The notes beneath the pieces are model-generated. The model searched no databases, was not told the origin of the DNA, and worked only from the letters and a program-made list of their open reading frames with translations. A program made the translations under genes and the position numbers. From contig JAVJWO010000202.1 of assembly GCA_040222015.1 (NCBI GenBank), positions 1-19,661 on the forward strand: a stretch of DNA of 19,661 nucleotides, in the 5' to 3' direction. This DNA is from Coleofasciculus chthonoplastes F2-STO-03 (GTDB lineage Bacteria > Cyanobacteriota > Cyanobacteriia > Cyanobacteriales > Coleofasciculaceae). Shown here piece by piece: positions 2,710 to 19,661 of this stretch; positions within the stretch are counted from its first letter, which is position 1; the number at the start of each line of letters is the position of its first letter.

Positions 2710-4035
2710 ATGAGCCAAAAAACCTCAGCTAAATCATCCACTCCTTCCTCCCCCCTGTCGATTAACCCTGCTTTGCAGACGGCTTTAGGGAGCCTAGACG
2801 TGCAACTCGAAGCCGAATTAGCTCGCTATCGACGCCAACGCCGAGGACGTGGTATCACATCTCCCCAACTGCCGGGGCGTTACCCCAAACAGAAATCTGG
2901 AGTCAATCAGCTTGAGCCGACAACAGCGTCTCCTATTTCTATCGCCCCAGCCGCCGATTCTACGAGTTCTCCCGGAGACATTAATCGGCAATCCTCTCAA
3001 GTGAGTGGTTCTCCCACACCAGAAAAGAAAGAATCCCCAGAGACTGAACCCACTCCACCCCTGTTTCCGCCCCTACTTAGCCAGGAAGCCCCCTTGGTGA
3101 AGACTCAGGAGCAAAGGGTTACTGACTCGCAAAGTCTTGAGGAATCCCTAGAAGGGGAAGGTAAATTAATTGTCCCGACAACGGATCAGTCTCAGCCAGA
3201 AGACTATTTAGAATCCTCAGAAAAACTACGGCAAACCTTAGCCGAACAGGAAACCACAACGGAACCCCAAAAACCCGTATCGAATAGAATCCTCACTCCC
3301 CTCGGTGTCGGTTCGATTTTGCTGTTGCTGGTTTCGAGTGCGACATTGACCTATATTTTTCGGACTAGCCTAGGGCTTGACTTCTTAGAAACTGAGACAC
3401 CCACGACGGCTGAGAATTCAACAGCGACAACCGCTAATGGGGTCAATGAATTACTCGGCGTAAATAAACCGAATCTCGCCAGTGATGATGAATTCCCAGA
3501 CGTGAATATCAATACACTCCCTAATCTGAAAGCCAATCCAACCTCTAGTCCAAGTGCTTCACCCATCGCCCCCATCCCCAATTCACCGCCTCCAGCAGCG
3601 GCTCCACCCACGGCTTCAGTCCTACCTTTACCCCAGTTACCGAATCCAGCTTCAAATTTACCATCAGCCCTTTTAACTCGTCCTACCCCACCACCTCCAA
3701 CGGCGACGCCATCGGTGACACCAAATTCCTCACCCGCTCAACCCGAATCATCGACTAACAAGTCCTCAGAACAGGCGAATAAATCCACCTCGGCTGCACC
3801 GAGTCCAAACAACGCCACCTCGAATCTGAGTGATGAGTTCTATTATGTGCTGATTAACTCCAGCGATAGTAGTGTGTTGGAGACAGCCCAAACTATTGTC
3901 CCTGATGCCTATGTGGTGAACGTACCCGCAGGGACAAGAATTGCTATGGGTGCATTTAAACTAGAGTCAGAAGCCAAAACCCTCGTCGAGAGGCTTAAGC
4001 AACAGGGACTTTCTGCATCGATTTATAACCCTTAG
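2710..4035 (+). CDS. Pro/Ser-rich single-pass membrane protein with SPOR-like C-terminal domain
   Basis: N-terminal LGSLDVQLEAELARYRRQR, hydrophobic segment LTPLGVGSILLLLVSSATLTYIF, long Pro-rich linker, and C-terminal IAMGAFKLESEAKTLVERLKQQGLSA (SPOR-like). Confidence 0.75.
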   Translation: MSQKTSAKSSTPSSPLSINPALQTALGSLDVQLEAELARYRRQRRGRGITSPQLPGRYPKQKSGVNQLEPTTASPISIAPAADSTSSPGDINRQSSQVSGSPTPEKKESPETEPTPPLFPPLLSQEAPLVKTQEQRVTDSQSLEESLEGEGKLIVPTTDQSQPEDYLESSEKLRQTLAEQETTTEPQKPVSNRILTPLGVGSILLLLVSSATLTYIFRTSLGLDFLETETPTTAENSTATTANGVNELLGVNKPNLASDDEFPDVNINTLPNLKANPTSSPSASPIAPIPNSPPPAAAPPTASVLPLPQLPNPASNLPSALLTRPTPPPPTATPSVTPNSSPAQPESSTNKSSEQANKSTSAAPSPNNATSNLSDEFYYVLINSSDSSVLETAQTIVPDAYVVNVPAGTRIAMGAFKLESEAKTLVERLKQQGLSASIYNP

Positions 4036-4137
4036 TAACTATCGATGTGTCTACTGCTATAAGACCAAGGACTAAAGAAGCTTGAGATATCATGGTGTGA
4101 AAGTTTTCCCAACCCCTAACCACAATGGAGAGCTGCT

Positions 4138-5166
4138 ATGGGATTGATGGAGCGCATCGGGCGAGTGATTCGCTCCACCCTGAATAGCCTGATTGGACAA
4201 GTCGAAGATCCAGAGAAAATTCTGGAACAAGCAGTGGAAGATCCAGAGAAAATTCTGGAGCAAGCCATTATTGTCATGCAAGGAGATCTGGTACAACTGC
4301 GCCAAGCCGTTGCCCGATCCATTGCTACGCAAAAACGTACCGAGCAACAATACAATAAATACGAATCTGAAGACAATACCTGGCAGCAACGCGCCCAAAT
4401 TGCCCTGCAAGAAGGGGATGAAAACCAAGCCCAGGAAGCATTACAGGGTAAAAAAGCAGTCGCTAAAATGGCTCAAGCTCTACAAGCACAACTGGCTGAG
4501 CAACGTGAGATTGTTACTGAACTTAAAAAAGATATGCGGACTTTAGAGAGTAAAATCTCGGATGCAAAAACGAAAAAAGACCTTTATATTGCCAGAGCGC
4601 GTTCGGCTCAAGCCTCAGAGAAAATTAACCAGATGCGGGGAAATCTCAACACAGCCTTTGAGCGCATGGACAGATTACAGGAACTCGAAGCCCGATCAGA
4701 GGCGATCGCAGAATCTTCCAGTAGGGAGCGCATCGGGCGAGTGATTCACATTAATCTGAATAGGCTGATTGGAAAAGCCGAAAATCCAGAGAAAATTCTG
4801 GAGCAAGCCATTATTGACATGCAAGAAGATCTGGTACAACTGCGCCAAGCCGTTGATCAATTAATTGCTACGCAAAAACGTACCGAGCGACAATACCATA
4901 AATACGAATCTGAAGCCAATACCTGGCAGCAACGCGCCCAACTTGCCCTGCAAAAAGGGGATGAAAACCTTGCCCGCGAAGCACTCCAGCGCAAAAAATC
5001 CTTCGCTGAAATGGCTCAAGCTCTACAAGCACAACTGGCTGAGCAACGTGAGATTGTTACTGAACTTAAAGAATATATGCTGACTTTAGAGAGTAAAATC
5101 TCGGAGGCAAAAACGAAAAAAGACCTTTATATTGCCAGATCGGGTTCGGCTCAAGCCTCGGTTTAA
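4138..5166 (+). CDS. Chimeric two-unit PspA/IM30 protein (pspA/vipp1 mosaic; possibly decaying)
   Basis: 342-aa ORF with two internal units (starting 4150 and 4726), each built from segments nearly identical to 5413-6177 and 6504-7283. Its upstream region (~4077-4137) duplicates 5351-5412. Confidence 0.8.
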   Translation: MGLMERIGRVIRSTLNSLIGQVEDPEKILEQAVEDPEKILEQAIIVMQGDLVQLRQAVARSIATQKRTEQQYNKYESEDNTWQQRAQIALQEGDENQAQEALQGKKAVAKMAQALQAQLAEQREIVTELKKDMRTLESKISDAKTKKDLYIARARSAQASEKINQMRGNLNTAFERMDRLQELEARSEAIAESSSRERIGRVIHINLNRLIGKAENPEKILEQAIIDMQEDLVQLRQAVDQLIATQKRTERQYHKYESEANTWQQRAQLALQKGDENLAREALQRKKSFAEMAQALQAQLAEQREIVTELKEYMLTLESKISEAKTKKDLYIARSGSAQASV

Positions 5167-5286
5167 ATTAATGCGGTAATCTATACAGGTAAAGCCCTCA
5201 GAGCAGTTGAGCCCATGGAAAACAAATTGCTGAAACTCGAATCCGAGTAGAAGCGATCGCACAACCCTCTAGTGGCGATGAACTGG
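5167..5286 (+). pseudogene. Decayed continuation of the duplicated pspA segment after the TAA stop
   Basis: Similar to pspA ~5866-5996 (shared GCGATCGCA...CTCTAGTGGCGATGAACTGG) but carries deletions, including a 1-bp loss before the HIP1 site. Confidence 0.7.
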
Positions 5287-5317
5287 CTCGGTGATTGGGG
5301 AACTCTTAACAGAGAAT

Positions 5318-5345
5318 GACATAAGACATAAGACATAAGACATAA
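5318..5345. repeat. STRR-type heptamer tandem repeat (GACATAA)x4
   Basis: Four exact copies at 5318, 5325, 5332 and 5339. Confidence 0.9.
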
Positions 5346-5412
5346 GACCAAGAAGCCTGAGATACCATAGTGATAAAGTTTTCCCAACCCCTAACCACAA
5401 TGGAGAGCTGCT

Positions 5413-6177
5413 ATGGGATTGATTGAGCGCATCGGGCGAGTGATTCGCGCCAACCTGAATAGCCTGATTGGACAAGCCGAAGATCCAGAGAAAATTCTGG
5501 AACAAGCTGTGGACGATATGCAGCAGGATTTAATCCAAATGCGGCAGGCTGTCGCTCAAGCGATCGCGTCCCAAAAACGTACAGAACGCCAAGCCTCTCA
5601 AGCTGAATCGACTGCCAGTGAATGGTACAACCTCGCTCAACTGGCTCTGTCAAAAGGGGACGATAATTTAGCACGAGAAGCCCTAACTCGACGACAAACT
5701 CATCAGCAAACGGCTCAAGCTCTCCAGGGGCAACTGGGGCAGCAACGTGAGATTGTTACTAAACTTAAAAAAGATATGCTGACGCTAGAGAGTAAAATCT
5801 CGGAGGCAAAAACGAAAAAAGACCTTTATATTGCCAGAGCGCGTTCGGCTCAAGCCTCAGGGAACATTAACGAGATGCTAGGAAATCTCAACACAGGCGG
5901 TACTCTGAGTGCCTTTGAGCGCATGGAAGACAGAGTACACGAACTAGAAGCCCGATCAGAGGCGATCGCAGAACTCTCTAGTGGCGATGAACTGGAAAAG
6001 AAATTTAATGCCATAGAAAGTGGCAATAACGTTGATACAGAATTAGCTTCGATGAAAGCCAACCTGGGTGGCACAACGGAATCGGCAAAATTACCGTCCG
6101 CTCAAGCCGCATCGGGTAGCAATGCGGAGATTGAGGCAGAACTAGAAAAACTGCGTTCTGATCTGGATAAATCCTAG
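5413..6177 (+). CDS. pspA: PspA/IM30 family protein (PspA paralogue)
   Basis: MGLIERIGRVIRANLN, AEDPEKILEQ, GDDNLAREAL, AFERMEDRV..LEARSEA and VDTELASMKA. GGAG RBS upstream. Confidence 0.9.
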   Translation: MGLIERIGRVIRANLNSLIGQAEDPEKILEQAVDDMQQDLIQMRQAVAQAIASQKRTERQASQAESTASEWYNLAQLALSKGDDNLAREALTRRQTHQQTAQALQGQLGQQREIVTKLKKDMLTLESKISEAKTKKDLYIARARSAQASGNINEMLGNLNTGGTLSAFERMEDRVHELEARSEAIAELSSGDELEKKFNAIESGNNVDTELASMKANLGGTTESAKLPSAQAASGSNAEIEAELEKLRSDLDKS

Positions 6178-6503: not shown

Positions 6504-7283
6504 ATGGGACTATTCGATCGCCTGAGCCGAGTTGTCAGAGCTAATCTTAACGATATGGTTAGCAAGGCTGAAGACCCAGAAAAAATTCTGGAGCAAGCCA
6601 TTATTGATATGCAAGAAGATCTGGTACAACTGCGCCAAGCTGTTGCCCGATCCATTGCCACGCAAAAACGCACCGAGCAACAATACAATAAAAACCAATC
6701 CGAAGCCAATAACTGGCAGCAACGCGCCCAACTTGCCCTGCAAAAAGGGGATGAAAACCTTGCCCGCGAAGCACTCCAGCGCAAAAAATCCTTCGCTGAA
6801 ACAGCAACCGTACTCAAAGGTCAGCTTGAACAGCAAACGGCTCAAGTAGCCACCCTGAAGCGTAACCTAATTGCCTTGGAAAGTAAAATTTCTGAGGCGA
6901 AGACCAAAAAAGATATGCTCAAGGCACGGGTGAGTGCGGCTAAGGCAAACGAGCAGTTACAAAGCACCATTGGTCGTTTGGGAACTGGCTCGGCGATGGG
7001 GGCATTTGAGCGGATGGAAGACAAAGTGATGGAAATTGAAGCCCGTTCCCAAGCGGCTGATGAGTTGGGTGGTGCTGACTTAGAAAATCAATTTGCTGCC
7101 CTGGAATCGGGGAGTGATGTTGATGATGAGTTGACGGCAATGAAAGCCCAATTAGCCGGCGGTTCTGTCTCCCAGCCAGCGTTAGAAGGCACATCAGAGC
7201 AGAAAACTGACTCAGGTGCTGCCCGCAAATCAGAAGTTGACGACGAATTGGAACAACTGCGAAAGCAAATCGACAATTTGTAA
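6504..7283 (+). CDS. vipp1: Vesicle-inducing protein in plastids 1 (IM30)
   Basis: MGLFDRLSRVVRANLNDMVSKAEDPEKILEQ, LKRNLIALESKISEAKTKKDMLKAR, LENQFAALESGSDVDDEL, and a linker followed by the C-terminal helix EVDDELEQLRKQIDNL. GAGG RBS upstream. Confidence 0.93.
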   Translation: MGLFDRLSRVVRANLNDMVSKAEDPEKILEQAIIDMQEDLVQLRQAVARSIATQKRTEQQYNKNQSEANNWQQRAQLALQKGDENLAREALQRKKSFAETATVLKGQLEQQTAQVATLKRNLIALESKISEAKTKKDMLKARVSAAKANEQLQSTIGRLGTGSAMGAFERMEDKVMEIEARSQAADELGGADLENQFAALESGSDVDDELTAMKAQLAGGSVSQPALEGTSEQKTDSGAARKSEVDDELEQLRKQIDNL

Positions 7284-9259: not shown

Positions 9260-12200
9260 TTAACGATAAGTTCTTGAGCCTTGAGCTTGACAAATATCAT
9301 GAGATAGTGTATTAACCGGATGCAGACGTTCAAAAACGGGGTGATTTTCAAGGCGATCGCACGCCAGCCGCAGCCCAGTTTGCCAATCTCGCGGTTCTGG
9401 TAAAATCCGCACATCCCACAAGCGTACTGTTTTATCCCGGCTACCACTGGCAAGTCTCTCACCATCTGGACTAAACGCCAGCGATCGCACTGCACCTTGA
9501 TGTCCCCGTAACGGTTTACCCCGTAACTGACCCTGAGAATTCCATAAGCGAATTGTACCATCCCCACTACCACTAGCGATCGTTTCCCCATCCGGACTAA
9601 ACGCCACCGCAAAAACGACTCCCTGATGTCCCCGCCAAGGTTCACCGATTAACTCACCTTGACGATTCCATAAGCGTACCGTTCCATCTCGTCCCCCACT
9701 GACAATCCTCTCACCATTGGGACTAAACGCCAGGTCAAACACCACACCCTCATGTCCCCGAAACGGTTGACCCAAGGGTTGACCCTGACGATTCCATACG
9801 CGAATCGTACCATCCCCACTACCACTAGCAATGGTTTCTCCATCGGGACTAAACGCCACGGTAAAAACGACTCCCTGATGTCCCATGAACGGTTGACCGA
9901 TGGGATTACCTTGGCGATTCCACACCTGAACGGTTCCATCTTTCCCACCACTGACTAGAAATTGACCGTCTGGACTCCAAGCTATTGAGGTGATCCAATC
10001 TTGTCCAAAAAACGGCTGACCTAGGGGTTGACCTTGAACCGTCCACAAGCGAATTTTACCATCCTGGCTACTACTAGCAATCACCTGTCCCTGGGGACTA
10101 AAAGCTACCCCTGTCACCTCAACTTTATGTCCGGGTAAGGATTGACGAATTACATTATCCTGTCGCGTCCACAGATGAACTAAACCATCCTCCGTTCCAC
10201 TGACCAAGATTTGATTATCAGGATGAAAAGCGACAGCATTAACCGCTGATTCGTGGTCTAAGCGATCGCGTTCTCTAGCTACCTCAATTGCCTGCCAAAG
10301 ACTAGACACAATCCGCTGATCGACTTGCTGAAATTTAGCATAACTTTGACCCGTTGTTTCAATTGCCAGTAATAATCCCTTAATCGGTTCCACTGGGAGC
10401 AAATTTTGGACAGTAGCGGCATTTTTATACAATTGTTCCCGTTGAGCCATCTGTGCCGTTTTATACCATCGGCTCATCCCCATCCCACTGGTCAGACTCA
10501 ATAGCGCGATCGCGAAAATTAATCCCCCCCTAGCTAAACCCCGTCGCGTTCGTTTGGGCTGGAGACTCTGCTGAATTAGGTCTTGTCCTAACCTAGATAA
10601 ATTGAGATGATCTCGATAATACTCTGCCTCAGTTAGGGTCAAATCCGATAACATTCGGTTCGGTTTTCCTTGAGTTTGCCACTCAATCGCCGCCGCTTCA
10701 ATTTGGCGCTGTAGTCTCATCCCGTGGCGTTTTTTTTCGACCCATTGCTGAAGTTTTGACCAATGCTGAATTAGGGCTTCGTGAGCAATCGTGACCAGGG
10801 TTTGGTTCCATTTTCCGGCGTAAGTAACGATTAATCCAGCATCGATTAAGTTTTGCATCACTGATGTAACCGCTTTCGTGGAATGGCGATCGCCAATGAA
10901 ATCATTTACCGCATTTGTTGGTGAAGCAGTGTTGATTGTTGACCCTTCACAACCTTCGAGAGCATCGTTTTGATTGTGTAGGGGCGGGTTTAGGAACTTT
11001 CGTTTCGCTATTGATAGTAACGTTTGTGCAAAACCCGCCCTGACTGAGGGTTGAGTGTTGCCCCTTCGCGACCTTCGAGGGTATGGTTTTGAGTTAACGA
11101 CTGAACTGTGTCCCGCTGCGCTAACCTTTTCCTCTAGTTTCCCTGATTCTGTGTTCCCAGACATAGTATGAGACGTGCCATGGCACGTCTCAACAGATTT
11201 GAATTGGTTTCTAGAGTTTACTTTAAAACTCAGGATTAACTCAGACGGGTCTGCTTTTCGCGCCGTAACTTGACCGTTTTCATTTAATTGAATTAACGCC
11301 AAAAAAATGTCTTTGGCAATTTGTTGCTCATTAGCCGACAACGATTGATAAACGCGGTTGGCGTGTTTTTCGATTGCTCCTTGCAGCTTACCCCAACGAT
11401 AATATTCGGCTACCATTAACCGATCCACTGGACGCCGTTGCCACAGTTGAGTTAACATAAACTGGAGTAACGGTAAACTGGCAGCATCCTCTAAATCTAA
11501 GAGTAGTTGAGTTATTAAATCTGACTCAATCTCTACACCCACTTGCTGGGCGGGTTTAATAATAGCGGTTTTCAATCCTTCCCTGGTTATTGGCGTTACC
11601 GTCACCATCAGCGCCTGAATTTTTTGGACTAATTCGGGATAATTTGCACAATGACTTAAAAAATCTGTTCGCATCCCGATAACCAGACAAAGTTGATTAT
11701 CGGTACGTTCTAGTCCACCCAACAAACAATCAAAAAACTGTTGTCGTTCAGTTTCATCCTGACAACAAGTAAACACCTGTTCAAATTGATCCACCACCAG
11801 TACTAACCGCTGCTTTTCAGCCCTTGTCCGCACCACAATCCCTAATCCTACCGCCCCCATTTGAATCAGTTTCATGGTTTGTGCAAACTGATAGTCGCGT
11901 TCTGGGTTATGGGGATTGATAAAGGATCGGGCTAAATTCTGGAGAGGATGTTCACCGGGTTGAAAAATTAAAGTTAGCCATTCCTGAGTTCCTGATAAGC
12001 GTTGTCCCCGTTGAAGCTGATGCAAAAGTCCGGCGCGAATTAGCGAAGATTTGCCACTACCACAGGTTCCGATTACCGCCAGGAAAGTGTTTTTGCGTAT
12101 ATGTTCGAGGAGTTCATCTGTTAACGTCTCTCGCCCATAAAAATACTGGGGGTCTTCATTTTTGTAGTCAAAATAGGCTAACCCTTTATAAGGACAAAAC

Positions 12201-13015
12201 CGTTCAGGTGCGCTGGGGGGTAAAGCGGGGAAAGAGTCTGAATCAGTTTCACGGTTACGGATTAAAAAAATCGGATTTCCGGCGTTAGCAAAAATTAGGG
12301 GTGGGGACAATTGATGAATCAAATCGGTCAGGGTATAGTTCGTCACCCAGCCAGGGAGATGGTTTCTGGAATCGAGTCCTAATAATAGAATGGACGCCAA
12401 CTGACTATATTTATCCGATTCAGTCGGATTCAGTTGTTGTGTTTGCAGGTTATCCTTGTCTCCCCATTTTCCCCTCTCCCCATTCCTTTGTGACTGACAG
12501 GTGGCGATAAAACAACGACTGTATCCCTGACCCCGATATCCCGGATCAGCTTGGGTGAGGTCAAATCCTGCATCGTTACAATAGCAATCTAACCAAATAA
12601 TTTGCTCTCGAACTGGACTTTGTTGCAACAAATCACGCAGCCATGACAGAGATAATCCCCAGTTACCGCGATTTGGGTTAATATCGCTGGTGGCTAAGAA
12701 ACTGGTTGGTCTATCTTGGTGTTTGCAGAGTCCATAGCCAGAGAAATACAGCAGAACCGTATCGGGAATTGTGTTTCCTTCTGGTAACAAGAGTTGGACG
12801 AGTGCGGCTTCAAGTTGAGTCAGGGTAACTCGAATCGGGGTGGTTACATCGACAGGAGTGTTGAAAGTGAAAGCCGGAATCCGCCTAACTTCGACATTAC
12901 CGCGATCAATCAGGAGTTGCGCGATCGCATCAGCATCTTTTGCTGGTGATGTCAAGTTTTTCAGATGCTGAGTATCGTAAGTATTAATCCCAACGATCAA
13001 AGCCTGTCGATTCAT
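9260..13015 (-). CDS. Caspase-like (C14, dyad mutated) + nSTAND NTPase + TM + WD40 repeat protein
   Basis: N-terminal ALIVGINTY..L.SPAKDA; CPYKGLAYF, YFYGRE, Walker A GTCGSGKSS, LVVDQFEQ, SLPLLQFMLTQLW and IAHEALIQHW. A hydrophobic segment lies at ~10475-10528, followed by about seven GH...W WD40 repeats. Confidence 0.9.
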   Translation of the reverse strand: MNRQALIVGINTYDTQHLKNLTSPAKDADAIAQLLIDRGNVEVRRIPAFTFNTPVDVTTPIRVTLTQLEAALVQLLLPEGNTIPDTVLLYFSGYGLCKHQDRPTSFLATSDINPNRGNWGLSLSWLRDLLQQSPVREQIIWLDCYCNDAGFDLTQADPGYRGQGYSRCFIATCQSQRNGERGKWGDKDNLQTQQLNPTESDKYSQLASILLLGLDSRNHLPGWVTNYTLTDLIHQLSPPLIFANAGNPIFLIRNRETDSDSFPALPPSAPERFCPYKGLAYFDYKNEDPQYFYGRETLTDELLEHIRKNTFLAVIGTCGSGKSSLIRAGLLHQLQRGQRLSGTQEWLTLIFQPGEHPLQNLARSFINPHNPERDYQFAQTMKLIQMGAVGLGIVVRTRAEKQRLVLVVDQFEQVFTCCQDETERQQFFDCLLGGLERTDNQLCLVIGMRTDFLSHCANYPELVQKIQALMVTVTPITREGLKTAIIKPAQQVGVEIESDLITQLLLDLEDAASLPLLQFMLTQLWQRRPVDRLMVAEYYRWGKLQGAIEKHANRVYQSLSANEQQIAKDIFLALIQLNENGQVTARKADPSELILSFKVNSRNQFKSVETCHGTSHTMSGNTESGKLEEKVSAAGHSSVVNSKPYPRRSRRGNTQPSVRAGFAQTLLSIAKRKFLNPPLHNQNDALEGCEGSTINTASPTNAVNDFIGDRHSTKAVTSVMQNLIDAGLIVTYAGKWNQTLVTIAHEALIQHWSKLQQWVEKKRHGMRLQRQIEAAAIEWQTQGKPNRMLSDLTLTEAEYYRDHLNLSRLGQDLIQQSLQPKRTRRGLARGGLIFAIALLSLTSGMGMSRWYKTAQMAQREQLYKNAATVQNLLPVEPIKGLLLAIETTGQSYAKFQQVDQRIVSSLWQAIEVARERDRLDHESAVNAVAFHPDNQILVSGTEDGLVHLWTRQDNVIRQSLPGHKVEVTGVAFSPQGQVIASSSQDGKIRLWTVQGQPLGQPFFGQDWITSIAWSPDGQFLVSGGKDGTVQVWNRQGNPIGQPFMGHQGVVFTVAFSPDGETIASGSGDGTIRVWNRQGQPLGQPFRGHEGVVFDLAFSPNGERIVSGGRDGTVRLWNRQGELIGEPWRGHQGVVFAVAFSPDGETIASGSGDGTIRLWNSQGQLRGKPLRGHQGAVRSLAFSPDGERLASGSRDKTVRLWDVRILPEPRDWQTGLRLACDRLENHPVFERLHPVNTLSHDICQAQGSRTYR
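10978..11044. repeat. REPIN-like element inside the STAND/WD40 coding sequence
   Basis: GTAGGGGCGGGTTT-N39-AAACCCGCCCTGAC, read in frame as VRAGFAQTLLSIAKRKFLNPPL. Confidence 0.85.
11169..11192. repeat. Perfect 24-bp REP-like palindrome inside the CDS
   Basis: TGAGACGTGCCA|TGGCACGTCTCA, encoding ETCHGTSH. Same family as 6187 and 7344. Confidence 0.85.
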
Positions 13016-16435: not shown

Positions 16436-16504
16436 TTTGTTTTTGCTGCAAACGTTACCATAGTAGTCCTAGTTTAGATGATCTAGATAGTTCTTTACCA
16501 GTCG

Positions 16505-16590
16505 TTTGTAGTGAGGGCTTCAGCCCTCTCCAGCTAGGCGTTAGAGAACTAAAGTTCTCACTACAAACAAATTAGGTGTGCCACGCCAGT
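16505..16590 (+). repeat. Two-hairpin GTAG repeat with CACGCCAGTA end (left member of an inverted pair)
   Basis: GTAGTG-AGGGCT(TC)AGCCCT-CTCCAGCTAGGCGTTAG-AGAACT(AA)AGTTCT-CACTAC (16508-16564), then AAACAAA...CACGCCAGTA. Confidence 0.8.
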
Positions 16591-16669
16591 AGGGATGCAA
16601 CACATCACAATCATTGTAACCCCATGCTACCGTAGGAGAGCGATGAACGGTTCCCCAATGCAAGAGATT

Positions 16670-16894
16670 ACTAGTGCATCGGCAATTTCAGAGTTTCATA
16701 CAGCACCAACTCAGTTTATTAACTATCGGGCGGCATTGCGTCGTGAAGAACCTGATCGCATTCTCTATCTAGCCGTGCCAGATCTAACCTATAACAGTTT
16801 ATTTCAACTTGATTTTTCCGCATCAATGCTGCAAGAAAATACTATAAAAATGATAGTTTACAATATTGAAGTGGAGGAAATTTTACAATGGTAG
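16670..16894 (+). pseudogene. xisH: XisH-family gene, 5'-truncated
   Basis: SAISEFHTAPTQFINYRAALRREEPDRILYLAVP...IVYNIEVEEILQW is the C-terminal half of XisH. The N-terminal half is missing, and the upstream ORF sequence (16595-16670) is unrelated. Confidence 0.85.
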
Positions 16895-17235
16895 AACTAA
16901 CGGATAAAGTAATCAAGTATCAGCAAATTATGTAGCAATTGTTGATAGATTATGCAGAAGTTAAGCCGACTTATGGTGAGTTCGAGGTAGAGACAATCTT
17001 TGATACGCAGCGAAATCACTATCAAATTGTGCATCTAGGTTGGCACCATAGGCGCTGGGTGTATCATTGTTTAATGCATCTGGATATTCAGAATGAGAAA
17101 ATCTGGATTTTTTACAATTCAACGGAGCATGATATTGCGGCAGAATTAGTCGATTTGGGTGTGCCAAAACAAGATATTGTGCTAGGGTTTTATCCTCCTT
17201 TCATGCGTGAAATGACTGATTATGCCGTGGGCTAA
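16888..17235 (+). pseudogene. xisI: XisI-family gene with premature stop
   Basis: ATG at 16888 overlaps the xisH end: MVELTDKVIKYQQIM*QLLIDYA..., TAG at 16933-16935. The remainder has IFDTQRNHYQIVHLGW, HLDIQNEKIWI, TEHDIAAELVDLGVPKQDIVLGF and DYAVG. Confidence 0.85.
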
Positions 17236-17378: not shown

Positions 17379-17474
17379 TATTGGCGTGACCGGATTAAAA
17401 TAGGACTTTGTTTGTAGTAAGCACAAAGCGTGCTTTAACGCCTAGCTGGAGAGAGCTAAAGCTCTCACTACGAA
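17379..17474 (-). repeat. Two-hairpin GTAG repeat (right, inverted member of the pair)
   Basis: Reverse complement reads GTAGTGAGAGCTTTAGCTCTCTCCAGCTAGGCGTTAAAGCAC...ACTACAAACAAA...CACGCCAATA, matching 16508-16590. Confidence 0.8.
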
Positions 17475-17484
17475 CCAACTTAAC

Positions 17485-19661
17485 TTATTGGGCATTACCA
17501 ATTAAAATAAATGGTGACCAATAGAAGGGATGACGATCAATCTGTTGAAGTTTTGCCTGACGCAGGGCTTCGCCTTTACTCATCCCTTGGTTGAGATTTT
17601 GATAAAATTGGGTCATAATTTCGGATGTTGTTTCATCCTCAGCATTCCACAAACTTGCCATCACTGCTTTAGCACCTGCCCGTTCAAATAAGTAGGCAAT
17701 ACCTGCAATTTCTCGCCCGTCTGATTCTTCTCGCAAAGCGGTTTGACAGGCGCTGAGGATAAGAAGTTCAGTATTTTTCATGCCTAATCGTGCAGCATTG
17801 GCGATGTTGAAGGGTTCATCGGCAAATAGGAGGGTGTTGGGTTCCATATCGATGCGGCGTACACCATTACAGTCTTCCTCTTCTCCTAAACAGCAACCCT
17901 CAGATTCAAAACAGCCGTGAGTGGCAAGGTGGATCACTGGGAAGCGAGAGGCGTGATATTTGAATCTTTCGACAGTGGCGTCGTTACCCAGATAGATTTC
18001 ACTTCCAGGTAGGAGGTTGGGTAGATTTTTGATTTCGGCTTCCGCACCCGGTAAATTATAGGGTTCTTCCGGGATGGGATTCCCTAATCCTAATGCCCCA
18101 ATCTGTAAAGATGGAGAATTTTCGGTGTCTGTCAATTGCAGGGAATTGACACTTAAGCGAGTGAAATAATTGATGGGATAGTCTTCAATTAAGAATTTGC
18201 CTGTGTCTCGGTTGTAGAGGGTTTCAAAGGGAATATAGCGCAATTTACCTGTGGCGATGATGGCAATTTTGCTAGGATATAATGCCTGAATTTGGTCTTC
18301 AATGGGACGAATTAATAAGTCGTAGAGTTCGCTTCCCCTGTCGCGGAAGCCTGTGGCATAACGGTTTTGCAATATCTCTCGGTAGTCAGTAATTAGGGTA
18401 TCTAGTTTATCCGGATCGACGGGAACTTTTTTAACCGTGATGGGTTGGTCTTTCGTCAGGATAAAAATGGCGATATTGTTGGGAACATCTTTTATATTGG
18501 TCAGCAGGACGGGCTGAATAACGACTGTACCATCGGGGATACTGGCTTGGAGTTTTTCAATATCATCAGGCGTGGTTTCTAGAAGTTCAGCAACTTCAGG
18601 ATACTGGCGAGAGATGTCTTCCGCTTCTTGGTTAACTTGTGCCTCAAATTCCCGAAATTGGCGGGAGCGTTCCTCAGAAAAGTTGGCTTGTAATTGCTGG
18701 CGGAGGATTTCTAATTGCTGATTTTTTTGATTCCACTGGTCTAAAGATTTTTGGGCTTTGGTATTACTCACTTGAGCATCAATGAGGCGGGTATAATCAG
18801 CGAGTTCGGCTGTGCTGTAAAGGTTAATCCATTCAAAAGCTTTTTCAGGTTGATTTTGGTCAATCAAGAGGTTTGTTAGAGTAATGACACGACCTGGCTT
18901 ATTTCGTAAAAATGACTGCCGATTTTCTCGTAGTAAGCCGCGACGCATTTCTAGGGTAATGGTAATAGCTTGCTTGAGGTTACTAATCGCCTGTTGGGGT
19001 TGTTCGATAGTATCGTAGACTGCACCGATGTTATTGAGAGTAGTGGCAACACCAGAACGCTCGCCCACTTCCTGGAAAATAGGTAAGGCTTGGTTAAAGT
19101 AGTCTAATGCCTGTTGGAGTTGTCCGATGTCATTGTAGACCAAGCCAATATTATTGAGAGTGGCAGCTTCGCCAGAGAAATCGTCCACTTCCCGACGAAT
19201 CGGTAAAGCTTGGTTAAAGTAGTCTAATGCCTGTTGGGGTTGTCCGATGGTATCGTAGACTGCACCAATATTATTGAGAGTAGTGGCAACACCAGAGAGA
19301 TCGCCCACTTCCTGGAAAATAGGTAAGGCTTGGTTATAGTAGTCTAATGCCTGTTGGGGTTGTCCGATGGTATCGTAGACTGCACCAATATTATTGAGAG
19401 TACCAGCTTCACCAGAGAGATCGCTCACTTCCCGGCGAATAGGTAAGGCTTGGTTATAGTAGTCTAATGCCTGTTGGGGTTGTCCGATGGTATCGTAGAC
19501 TGAACCAATATTATTGAGAATAGCAGCTTCGCCAGAGAGATCGCCCACTTCCTGGAAAATAGGTAAGGCTTGGTTATAGTAGTCTAATGCCTGTTGGGGT
19601 TGTCCAATAGTATCGTAGACTGAACCAATATTATTGAGAGTAGTGGCAACACCTGAGCGAT
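17485..19661 (-). CDS. TPR-repeat + CHAT (caspase HetF-associated) protease; 5'-partial, start lies beyond the window
   Basis: Frame stays open past 19548 to the window edge (RSGVATTLNNIGSVY...). 40-aa TPR units; CHAT motifs LYDLLIRPI, LRYIPFETL, LPGAEAE, HLATHG, LSACQTA, ASLWNAED and HPFYWSPFILIG. Confidence 0.92.
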   Translation of the reverse strand, partial: RSGVATTLNNIGSVYDTIGQPQQALDYYNQALPIFQEVGDLSGEAAILNNIGSVYDTIGQPQQALDYYNQALPIRREVSDLSGEAGTLNNIGAVYDTIGQPQQALDYYNQALPIFQEVGDLSGVATTLNNIGAVYDTIGQPQQALDYFNQALPIRREVDDFSGEAATLNNIGLVYNDIGQLQQALDYFNQALPIFQEVGERSGVATTLNNIGAVYDTIEQPQQAISNLKQAITITLEMRRGLLRENRQSFLRNKPGRVITLTNLLIDQNQPEKAFEWINLYSTAELADYTRLIDAQVSNTKAQKSLDQWNQKNQQLEILRQQLQANFSEERSRQFREFEAQVNQEAEDISRQYPEVAELLETTPDDIEKLQASIPDGTVVIQPVLLTNIKDVPNNIAIFILTKDQPITVKKVPVDPDKLDTLITDYREILQNRYATGFRDRGSELYDLLIRPIEDQIQALYPSKIAIIATGKLRYIPFETLYNRDTGKFLIEDYPINYFTRLSVNSLQLTDTENSPSLQIGALGLGNPIPEEPYNLPGAEAEIKNLPNLLPGSEIYLGNDATVERFKYHASRFPVIHLATHGCFESEGCCLGEEEDCNGVRRIDMEPNTLLFADEPFNIANAARLGMKNTELLILSACQTALREESDGREIAGIAYLFERAGAKAVMASLWNAEDETTSEIMTQFYQNLNQGMSKGEALRQAKLQQIDRHPFYWSPFILIGNAQ
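18989..19661 (-). repeat. 120-bp near-identical tandem TPR-coding repeats (at least 5.6 units)
   Basis: GCCTGTTGG(G/A)GTTGT recurs at 18989, 19109, 19229, 19349, 19469 and 19589. Confidence 0.95.

Follow-up and report, generated by a model that had tools for sequence, protein, structure and literature searches.

The closest described systems are the cyanobacterial Vipp1/IM30 and PspA proteins (PF04012; PDB 6ZVR, 7O3W, 7ABK), which share with the gene described here the alpha0 helix, the alpha1-3 hairpin and the predicted fold. The chimera differs from them in that it holds two units per chain, has no alpha5 or alpha6, is a mosaic, changes its amino acids at a neutral rate and is accessory. 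Tandem PspA_IM30 repeats are already known: they are reported in <2% of homologues, cyanobacterial dyads and triads being occasionally fused (Ravi et al., PMC11237479), and they include Microcystis PspA-PspA-PspA(s), where, as here, a repeated domain stands beside pspA and vipp1. We compared these proteins by description; the account we draw on (PMC11237479) notes their architecture, not alpha5 loss, conversion mosaics, selection or function. A second point of comparison are engineered truncations, i.e.: Vipp1 delta-alpha5/6 (1-191), IM30 alpha1-3 and alpha1-4, and E. coli PspA 1-144 (4WHE), described as forming no rings. Unit 1 of the chimera is roughly equivalent to 1-191 and unit 2 to about 4-150, but the truncations are single units made in the laboratory, while the chimera is natural, tandem and hybrid. 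Neither the chimeric gene nor a natural alpha5-less PspA/Vipp1 is described in the literature we found, although such proteins may be listed in papers under subscription, in bioRxiv supplements or in the web app of Ravi et al.

A two-unit mosaic of pspA and vipp1

G000 is this genome (Coleofasciculus chthonoplastes F2-STO-03), and all coordinates are those of the window, the whole stretch of 19,661 nt that was analysed; the features below lie on its forward strand unless stated. At the locus, dciA (opposite strand) is followed by a 441-aa gene that matches neither Pfam nor NCBIfam, and then by the chimeric ORF, a pspA-type gene, vipp1 and thioredoxin. The ORF (4138-5166) encodes 342 aa in two PspA/Vipp1-like units and has no alpha5/alpha6 by profile and structure prediction. 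It passes PF04012 with 248.3 bits (gathering threshold 33.9) and, since alpha5 and alpha6 are missing, we class it as derived from PspA and Vipp1 and not as a canonical member of either. Its score for the PspA equivalog TIGR02977 is 190 bits (cut-off 243), and the intact neighbours also fall below the cut-off (159 and 164). The pspA-type gene (5413-6177, 254 aa), parent and conversion donor, retains alpha5 and has a Vipp1-like C-terminal tail; vipp1 (6504-7283, 259 aa) is the other donor. We consider pspA a fair label for the 254-aa neighbour because it outscores vipp1 against Synechocystis PspA (146 vs 114 bits), though its tail is Vipp1-like. Residue 74 of this pspA (5632-5634) is Leu, although Arg is nearly invariant at this position in the family.

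DNA identity between the ORF and its two neighbours is 75-91%. To map the mosaic, informative sites were scored against the pspA (P) and vipp1 (V) genes of G000 itself. Unit 1 (4138-4722), spanning alpha0-alpha4 with a degenerate hairpin tip, is pspA-type at 4138-4248 (29 P and 0 V at 4144-4248), vipp1-type at 4260-4465 (69 V, 4 P) and pspA-type at 4470-4720 (100 P, 5 V). Unit 2 (4723-5166) covers template residues 4-150, from alpha0 to part of alpha3, has a near-template tip, and follows the same order: pspA-type at 4723-4785 (22 P, 3 V), vipp1-type at 4791-5008 (72 V, 6 P) and pspA-type at 5013-5163 (65 P and 3 V, counted over 5013-5184). Switches are sharp in both units. This map bears out the initial annotation, which had read the ORF as a mosaic of its two downstream neighbours from the sequence alone, with boundaries agreeing within about 25 bp. 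The 89-bp identity that it reported between 4923-5011 and vipp1 6713-6801 was recovered as an exact match; this is the most recent conversion tract, and it includes a base unique to G000 vipp1 among 7 congeners. We also checked the three indels it had described as in frame, and all of them are: a 33-bp duplication (4204-4236) in the first pspA-type segment of unit 1, and 15-bp and 3-bp deletions in the second. Downstream of the ORF, a non-coding remnant of the alpha3-alpha4 region of unit 2 (5167-5286) stays in frame for 27 codons after the TAA and is then frameshifted, as had been noted, by a 1-bp loss near 5243 and closed by a TAG.

The ORF is preceded by a copy of the pspA leader (4075-4137) with an RBS-like GGAGAG at 4127-4132. 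This copy is part of a 168-bp direct repeat (93% identity) that brackets the ORF (4075-4242 / 5350-5517) and would allow its excision; the gene persists nonetheless. Repeat-mediated deletions of this kind outpace point mutation. A promoter and terminator scan found nothing upstream of the ORF, and returned 4 sites versus 3.9 in shuffles, and 5 versus 5.2. An internal GGGAG lies 12 nt before a GTG at 4741 (4724-4743), and a 141-aa protein consisting of unit 2 only (P0228, 4 members) is recorded for the contig, which could reflect an internal start or, alternatively, a different gene call. Heptamer tandem repeats (5315-5351 and 4036-4075) precede both copies of the pspA leader and are strain-variable where empty alleles join. 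Elsewhere in the window, a 46-nt inverted repeat of 87% identity (16504-16549 / 17430-17475) flanks two short ORFs (16595-16894 and 16939-17235) that we take to resemble XisH/XisI, and large ORFs at 9260-13015 and 17485-19548 (reverse strand), with 126-bp and 120-bp internal repeats, are presumably of caspase-like/ATPase/WD40 and TPR/CHAT types, judging from motifs.

The chimera exists in other genomes and in several allelic forms

The two-unit frame was found outside G000. A six-frame search of 31 genomes recovered it in G008, a congener of another species, as an ORF of 336 aa that occupies the same position and shares the unit junction and the C-terminus. A metagenome scan yielded L055, a contig encoding 342 aa with the same junction and the same stop codon, which is also that of G008; in both, the remnant carries a 26-bp deletion. 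Three database proteins came from protein searches: P0001 (342 aa, 87%) and P0002 (234 aa) have the same junction, the latter going out of frame just after residue 217 (a frameshift inferred from the protein), and P0229 (161 aa) is a one-unit allele that ends in the same ten residues and carries the degenerate tip. Contigs spanning the unit junction were present in 4 of 8 public runs (X6, X8, X10 and X12), a one-unit joint (4619-5189) in two (X12 and X17), and a deeper contig that skips the gene, joining 4032 to 5332, in five, so that these runs hold two-unit, one-unit and empty alleles. ORF coverage was almost nil in X1 and none was specific in X2 and X3, which is not to be read as absence. 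Across the contigs of the eight runs, RNA libraries and a probable DNA library gave ORF depths, relative to the empty allele, of similar magnitude. The ORF is real: the concern that it might be a misassembly is settled, for the gene, by the recurrence of the junction in G008, L055, P0001, P0002 and the contigs of four runs.

Among 8 congeners the gene is present in one; in five, the upstream gene is joined directly to pspA in an intact locus, and in the other two (G004 and G006) no junction match was found. Neither the locus tree, in which G008 is basal (support 94), nor the rpoC1 region places the carriers G000 and G008 together as sister species. Therefore, the gene is either ancestral and lost, or it has moved between species. 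Flanking dS (0.20-0.34) cannot date it securely: the remnant differs between G000 and G008 at only 6 of 114 sites, vs 8-16% in four spacers, which may reflect a later transfer or constraint on the remnant. This low divergence keeps transfer between species possible, and the age of the gene is uncertain. The likeness extends over 5190-5412, including the pspA leader (1 difference in 63 sites), which could mean that a promoter element of pspA lies within the remnant, or that the remnant belongs to an introgression tract. What did not survive is the description of the gene as newly assembled, since junction and stop are common to another species; a recent and lineage-specific origin applies to the vipp1 tracts alone.

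Probable repeated gene conversion and a possible history

The conversion tracts differ between lineages. In G008, unit 1 is wholly pspA-derived and unit 2 is vipp1-type in alpha1 only; the start of unit 2 in L055 resembles unit 1 of G000; and the donor that renewed the hairpin tip of unit 2 was vipp1 in G000 and pspA in G008. The two neighbours thus continue to exchange sequence with the ORF, and repeated gene conversion from both genes is the likely patching mechanism. As for the origin, we infer that pspA was duplicated together with its leader, that the copy was truncated ahead of alpha5, doubled and fused in frame, and that it was later stopped at template codon 151 of unit 2. Traffic may also have run in the opposite direction: in the pspA gene of G008 (L037:4496-5257), four bases within codons 104-108 that are unique among congeners match the chimera units, which suggests a back-conversion from the chimera into pspA. 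That same gene has the most private changes (20 codons).

The frame is probably protected while family residues drift

Pairwise dN/dS of the ORF in G000 was 0.93 against L055 and 0.51 against G008; the values for G000 against 6 congeners were 0.14-0.27 for pspA and 0.10-0.14 for vipp1. Conversion was removed from the analysis by counting, in the 3 alleles with DNA, only those states absent from all 14 parent genes. Codons 127-165 of unit 1 in G008 (poor alignment) were left out of all private-change counts, and the first 4 codons were additionally left out of the conserved-column, stop/proline and residue-class/tip tests. Private changes were synonymous and nonsynonymous in a ratio of 30.5:106.5 (30.5/137 synonymous), neutral in simulation, compared to 57:34 (57/91) in the parents (Fisher 1e-9). 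Family-conserved columns took 62% of 93 amino-acid changes, the neutral expectation being 62% and the parental value 27%. Profile damage was only slightly milder than neutral (-7.6 vs -8.3, P 0.03; parents -3.1), and BLOSUM score and charge-class tests of private changes gave no clear departure from neutrality. With conserved columns hit at the neutral rate, many polymer contacts have probably been eroded.

A different picture emerged for the reading frame. None of 123 private nucleotide changes creates an in-frame stop, with 6.5-9.1 expected under four mutation spectra (P 0.0001-0.0012). Stops were also avoided among the 76 changes absent from G000 (P 0.007) and among the 57 found only in G008 (P 0.025), and the same changes read in the five other frames gave 20 stops for 25 expected. 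Only one proline was gained (5.5-7.9 expected, P 0.003-0.03). All seven DNA-level indels are in frame, or 7 of 8 counting P0002 (P about 0.003 with a one-third background), vs 4 of 27 in nearby spacers, where gaps are not fully independent. Changes from hairpin core to polar residues were 7 where 13.6 were expected (P 0.03, one of ten classes, uncorrected). These results come from several tests on few alleles, that of G000 having been ascertained as open. Avoidance of stops and prolines and in-frame indels, together with a neutral amino-acid rate, suggest that an open frame and helicity are likely selected, and family residues are not; on this comparative evidence, selection has likely kept the frame open. 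Stops and frameshifts at a neutral rate and a dN/dS near 1 are both features of a pseudogene, and the ORF shows the second and not the first. The decaying duplicate that the initial annotation had offered as an option is hence hard to accept in the sense of a plain pseudogene, given the avoidance of stops and prolines. Among the signs of decay it had named, dN/dS near 1 was found (0.93 against L055, neutral S:N ratio), while frameshifted orthologues amount to 1 of 5 two-unit alleles (P0002).

Two predicted hairpins with unequal tips and no alpha5

AlphaFold, run on a 48-sequence alignment, predicts two hairpins (residues 35-151 and 216-332; mean pLDDT 78, pTM 0.50), with low confidence for their relative placement and for alpha0 (pLDDT <50 at residues 1-22). 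The first 17 rows of the Foldseek output are Vipp1/PspA chains, among them PspA 1-144 (4WHE, rmsd 1.2). The ORF protein gives no match to the alpha5 profile, for which pspA scores 51.9 and vipp1 60 bits, and, as it stops at template residue 150, the alpha6 extension of Vipp1 proper is absent too. Structure prediction and profile search thus uphold the proposed third paralogue, in which both hairpins are hybrid and alpha5/alpha6 are missing. The accompanying proposal of two membrane-binding helices is doubtful: alpha0 of unit 1 retains its hydrophobic moment (0.57), while that of unit 2 is internal and partial, having lost residues 1-3, and has a moment of 0.34 (comparison range 0.50-0.57). Net charge over residues 5-150 is -1/+1 in the chimera units vs +3/+6 in the parents.

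The two hairpin tips have fared differently. Residues 70-97 hold 18 of 55 changes in unit 1 and, in unit 2, 2 of 43 (Fisher 7e-4; 0.0075 by window-scan permutation); a single conversion tract wipes out several tip changes at once, however, so that these do not count as independent. The tip of unit 1 is degraded in both lineages, mostly through different changes. Vipp1 without alpha5/6 is reported to form neither rings nor filaments (PMC8281802), and IM30 alpha1-3 and alpha1-4 are reported as dimers (PMC6374351). By analogy with these non-polymerising truncations, a protein with no alpha5 is unlikely to form homopolymers.

Multi-hairpin relatives recur

Other, uncharacterised proteins resemble the chimera in having 2-3 hairpins and no alpha5 match (P0315, P0004, P0311, P0323, L111 and L112; P0315, of 336 aa, contains the alpha0-hairpin twice). 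They are at most about 45% identical to it, and hence likely of independent origin. Among the best 150 matches, 19 of 146 new representatives have at least two hairpins, and 16 of these 19 have no alpha5 match, about 4 of the 16 keeping alpha5-like remains by eye; in the same set, 53 of 127 single-hairpin matches also lack alpha5, many of which may be fragments. Given these remains, the bias of a two-unit query and the alpha5-less single hairpins, the data show recurrence and not enrichment. From the top matches listed in an order-wide PF04012 scan of 251 genomes, we took five genomes, each with four matches, for inspection by hand. Other PspA/Vipp1 derivatives with two hairpins were seen outside the pspA-vipp1 locus, at L044:560-1777 (G008:C65, a second such gene in G008), L109 (G160), L111 (G087) and L112 (G152). 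Vipp1 paralogues at L045:4027-5172, L046:2903-4021 and L113 have about 125 additional residues, hydrophobic and rich in Gly/Ala, inserted between alpha0 and the hairpin, and another, L108 (G034:C52), lies in a single 528-aa frame whose unrelated C-terminal region begins with a hydrophobic segment.

Discussion

The reading we favor, with a probability of about 40%, is that of an accessory double-hairpin product whose frame is kept and which, itself non-polymerising, would cap or shorten PspA/Vipp1 polymers; capping is one of the roles that the initial annotation had suggested, next to cross-linking and inhibition. Translated from the copied pspA leader, the predicted protein would join polymers by hairpin stacking, or by accepting the alpha5 of a neighbour. 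Offering no alpha5 itself, it would end the protofilament, so that the polymer is capped or shortened, with a presumable benefit in some niches. A degraded tip in unit 1 and a near-template tip in unit 2 fit such an acceptor-only subunit, which would dock on polymers through the intact tip of unit 2. Against docking, P0002 is frameshifted early in unit 2 and the one-unit P0229 has the degenerate tip; against the reading as a whole, the synonymous fraction is neutral, conserved columns are unspared and the gene is absent from five congeners. PspA/Vipp1 hetero-polymers are themselves described as unproven (PMC13051332).

Frame protection also suits an expressed but useless passenger, in which nonsense and proline alleles are culled because broken hairpins are harmful, while the gene is being lost by repeat-mediated deletion. 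The neutral amino-acid rate with unspared conserved columns, the absence from most congeners and from the deepest contigs of five mat runs, the frameshift in P0002, and the reported high fusogenicity of the isolated hairpin in vitro (PMC6374351) all agree with it. Yet the gene has remained in two species through 123 or more private changes, although it could easily be excised, its units show an asymmetry at the tip and its architecture recurs elsewhere, so we hold this explanation to be unlikely, albeit a serious one. Rather less probable is a stand-alone membrane protector, in which a bivalent hairpin, disassembled from the outset, would attach to stressed membranes or seed IM30 condensates, leaving polymer interfaces untouched. 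This would explain why helicity is kept and contact residues are not, and the hydrophobic moment retained by unit 1 alpha0 is in line with it; the alpha1-3 hairpin is reported to be enough for membrane binding (PMC12636044) and for condensates (10.64898/2026.02.28.708693), and the non-oligomerising IM30* to outdo wild type in protecting liposomes (10.1101/2020.09.16.299396). Binding is electrostatic, however, and the net charge of the units has fallen; moreover, the carpets are reported to require the C-terminal region that the chimera misses (10.1101/2020.09.16.299396).

A high amino-acid rate in a protected frame could alternatively denote a fast-evolving decoy or sensor in phage or toxin conflict, with a dN/dS near 1 that blends positive and purifying selection and with conversion shuffling surfaces. 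Patchy presence, possible transfer between species and the clustering of changes in the unit 1 tip speak for it, but overall dN/dS never exceeds 1, alleles are too few for site models, and no defence genes were noticed adjoining the ORF on inspection of the gene list; we deem it improbable. More improbable still is an untranslated pseudogene left open through luck and conversion. Its N:S ratio would be neutral, as observed, and the G000 allele was picked for being open; conversion, though, erases missense changes as readily as stops, whereas the deficit concerns stops and prolines only, stops are gained normally in other frames, and G008, which came from a search that reads through stops, has no in-frame stops either. 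As to an assembly artefact, which the many repeats of the locus and the draft state of the genome (219 contigs) might invite, the independent occurrences of the junction refute it for the gene, and the units hold private changes found in neither parent; its probability is negligible.

Beyond this locus, it is conceivable, if rather doubtful, that multi-hairpin ESCRT-III proteins without alpha5 arise time and again in cyanobacteria and terminate or cross-link Vipp1/PspA polymers, as a brake that works without Vps4 and that is tuned here by conversion, matching one docking tip to the Vipp1 or PspA of the host. Bacteria appear to be devoid of Vps4, and both the limiting or disassembly of their ESCRT-III polymers and the co-assembly of PspA with Vipp1 are described as questions in the field (PMC7619361, PMC13051332). 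The locus is a clear case of a duplicate with a protected frame and drifting family residues, of which mat populations hold alleles with zero, one and two units. If the gene were a mere passenger, its value would fall to that of an example of gene conversion. Being a natural double hairpin that lacks alpha5 and has hybrid PspA/Vipp1 surfaces, it is a ready reagent for the questions of polymer limitation and co-assembly and, if the broader proposal were true, recurrent alpha5-less terminators would constitute a genetically encoded brake on ESCRT-III polymers in Vps4-less bacteria.
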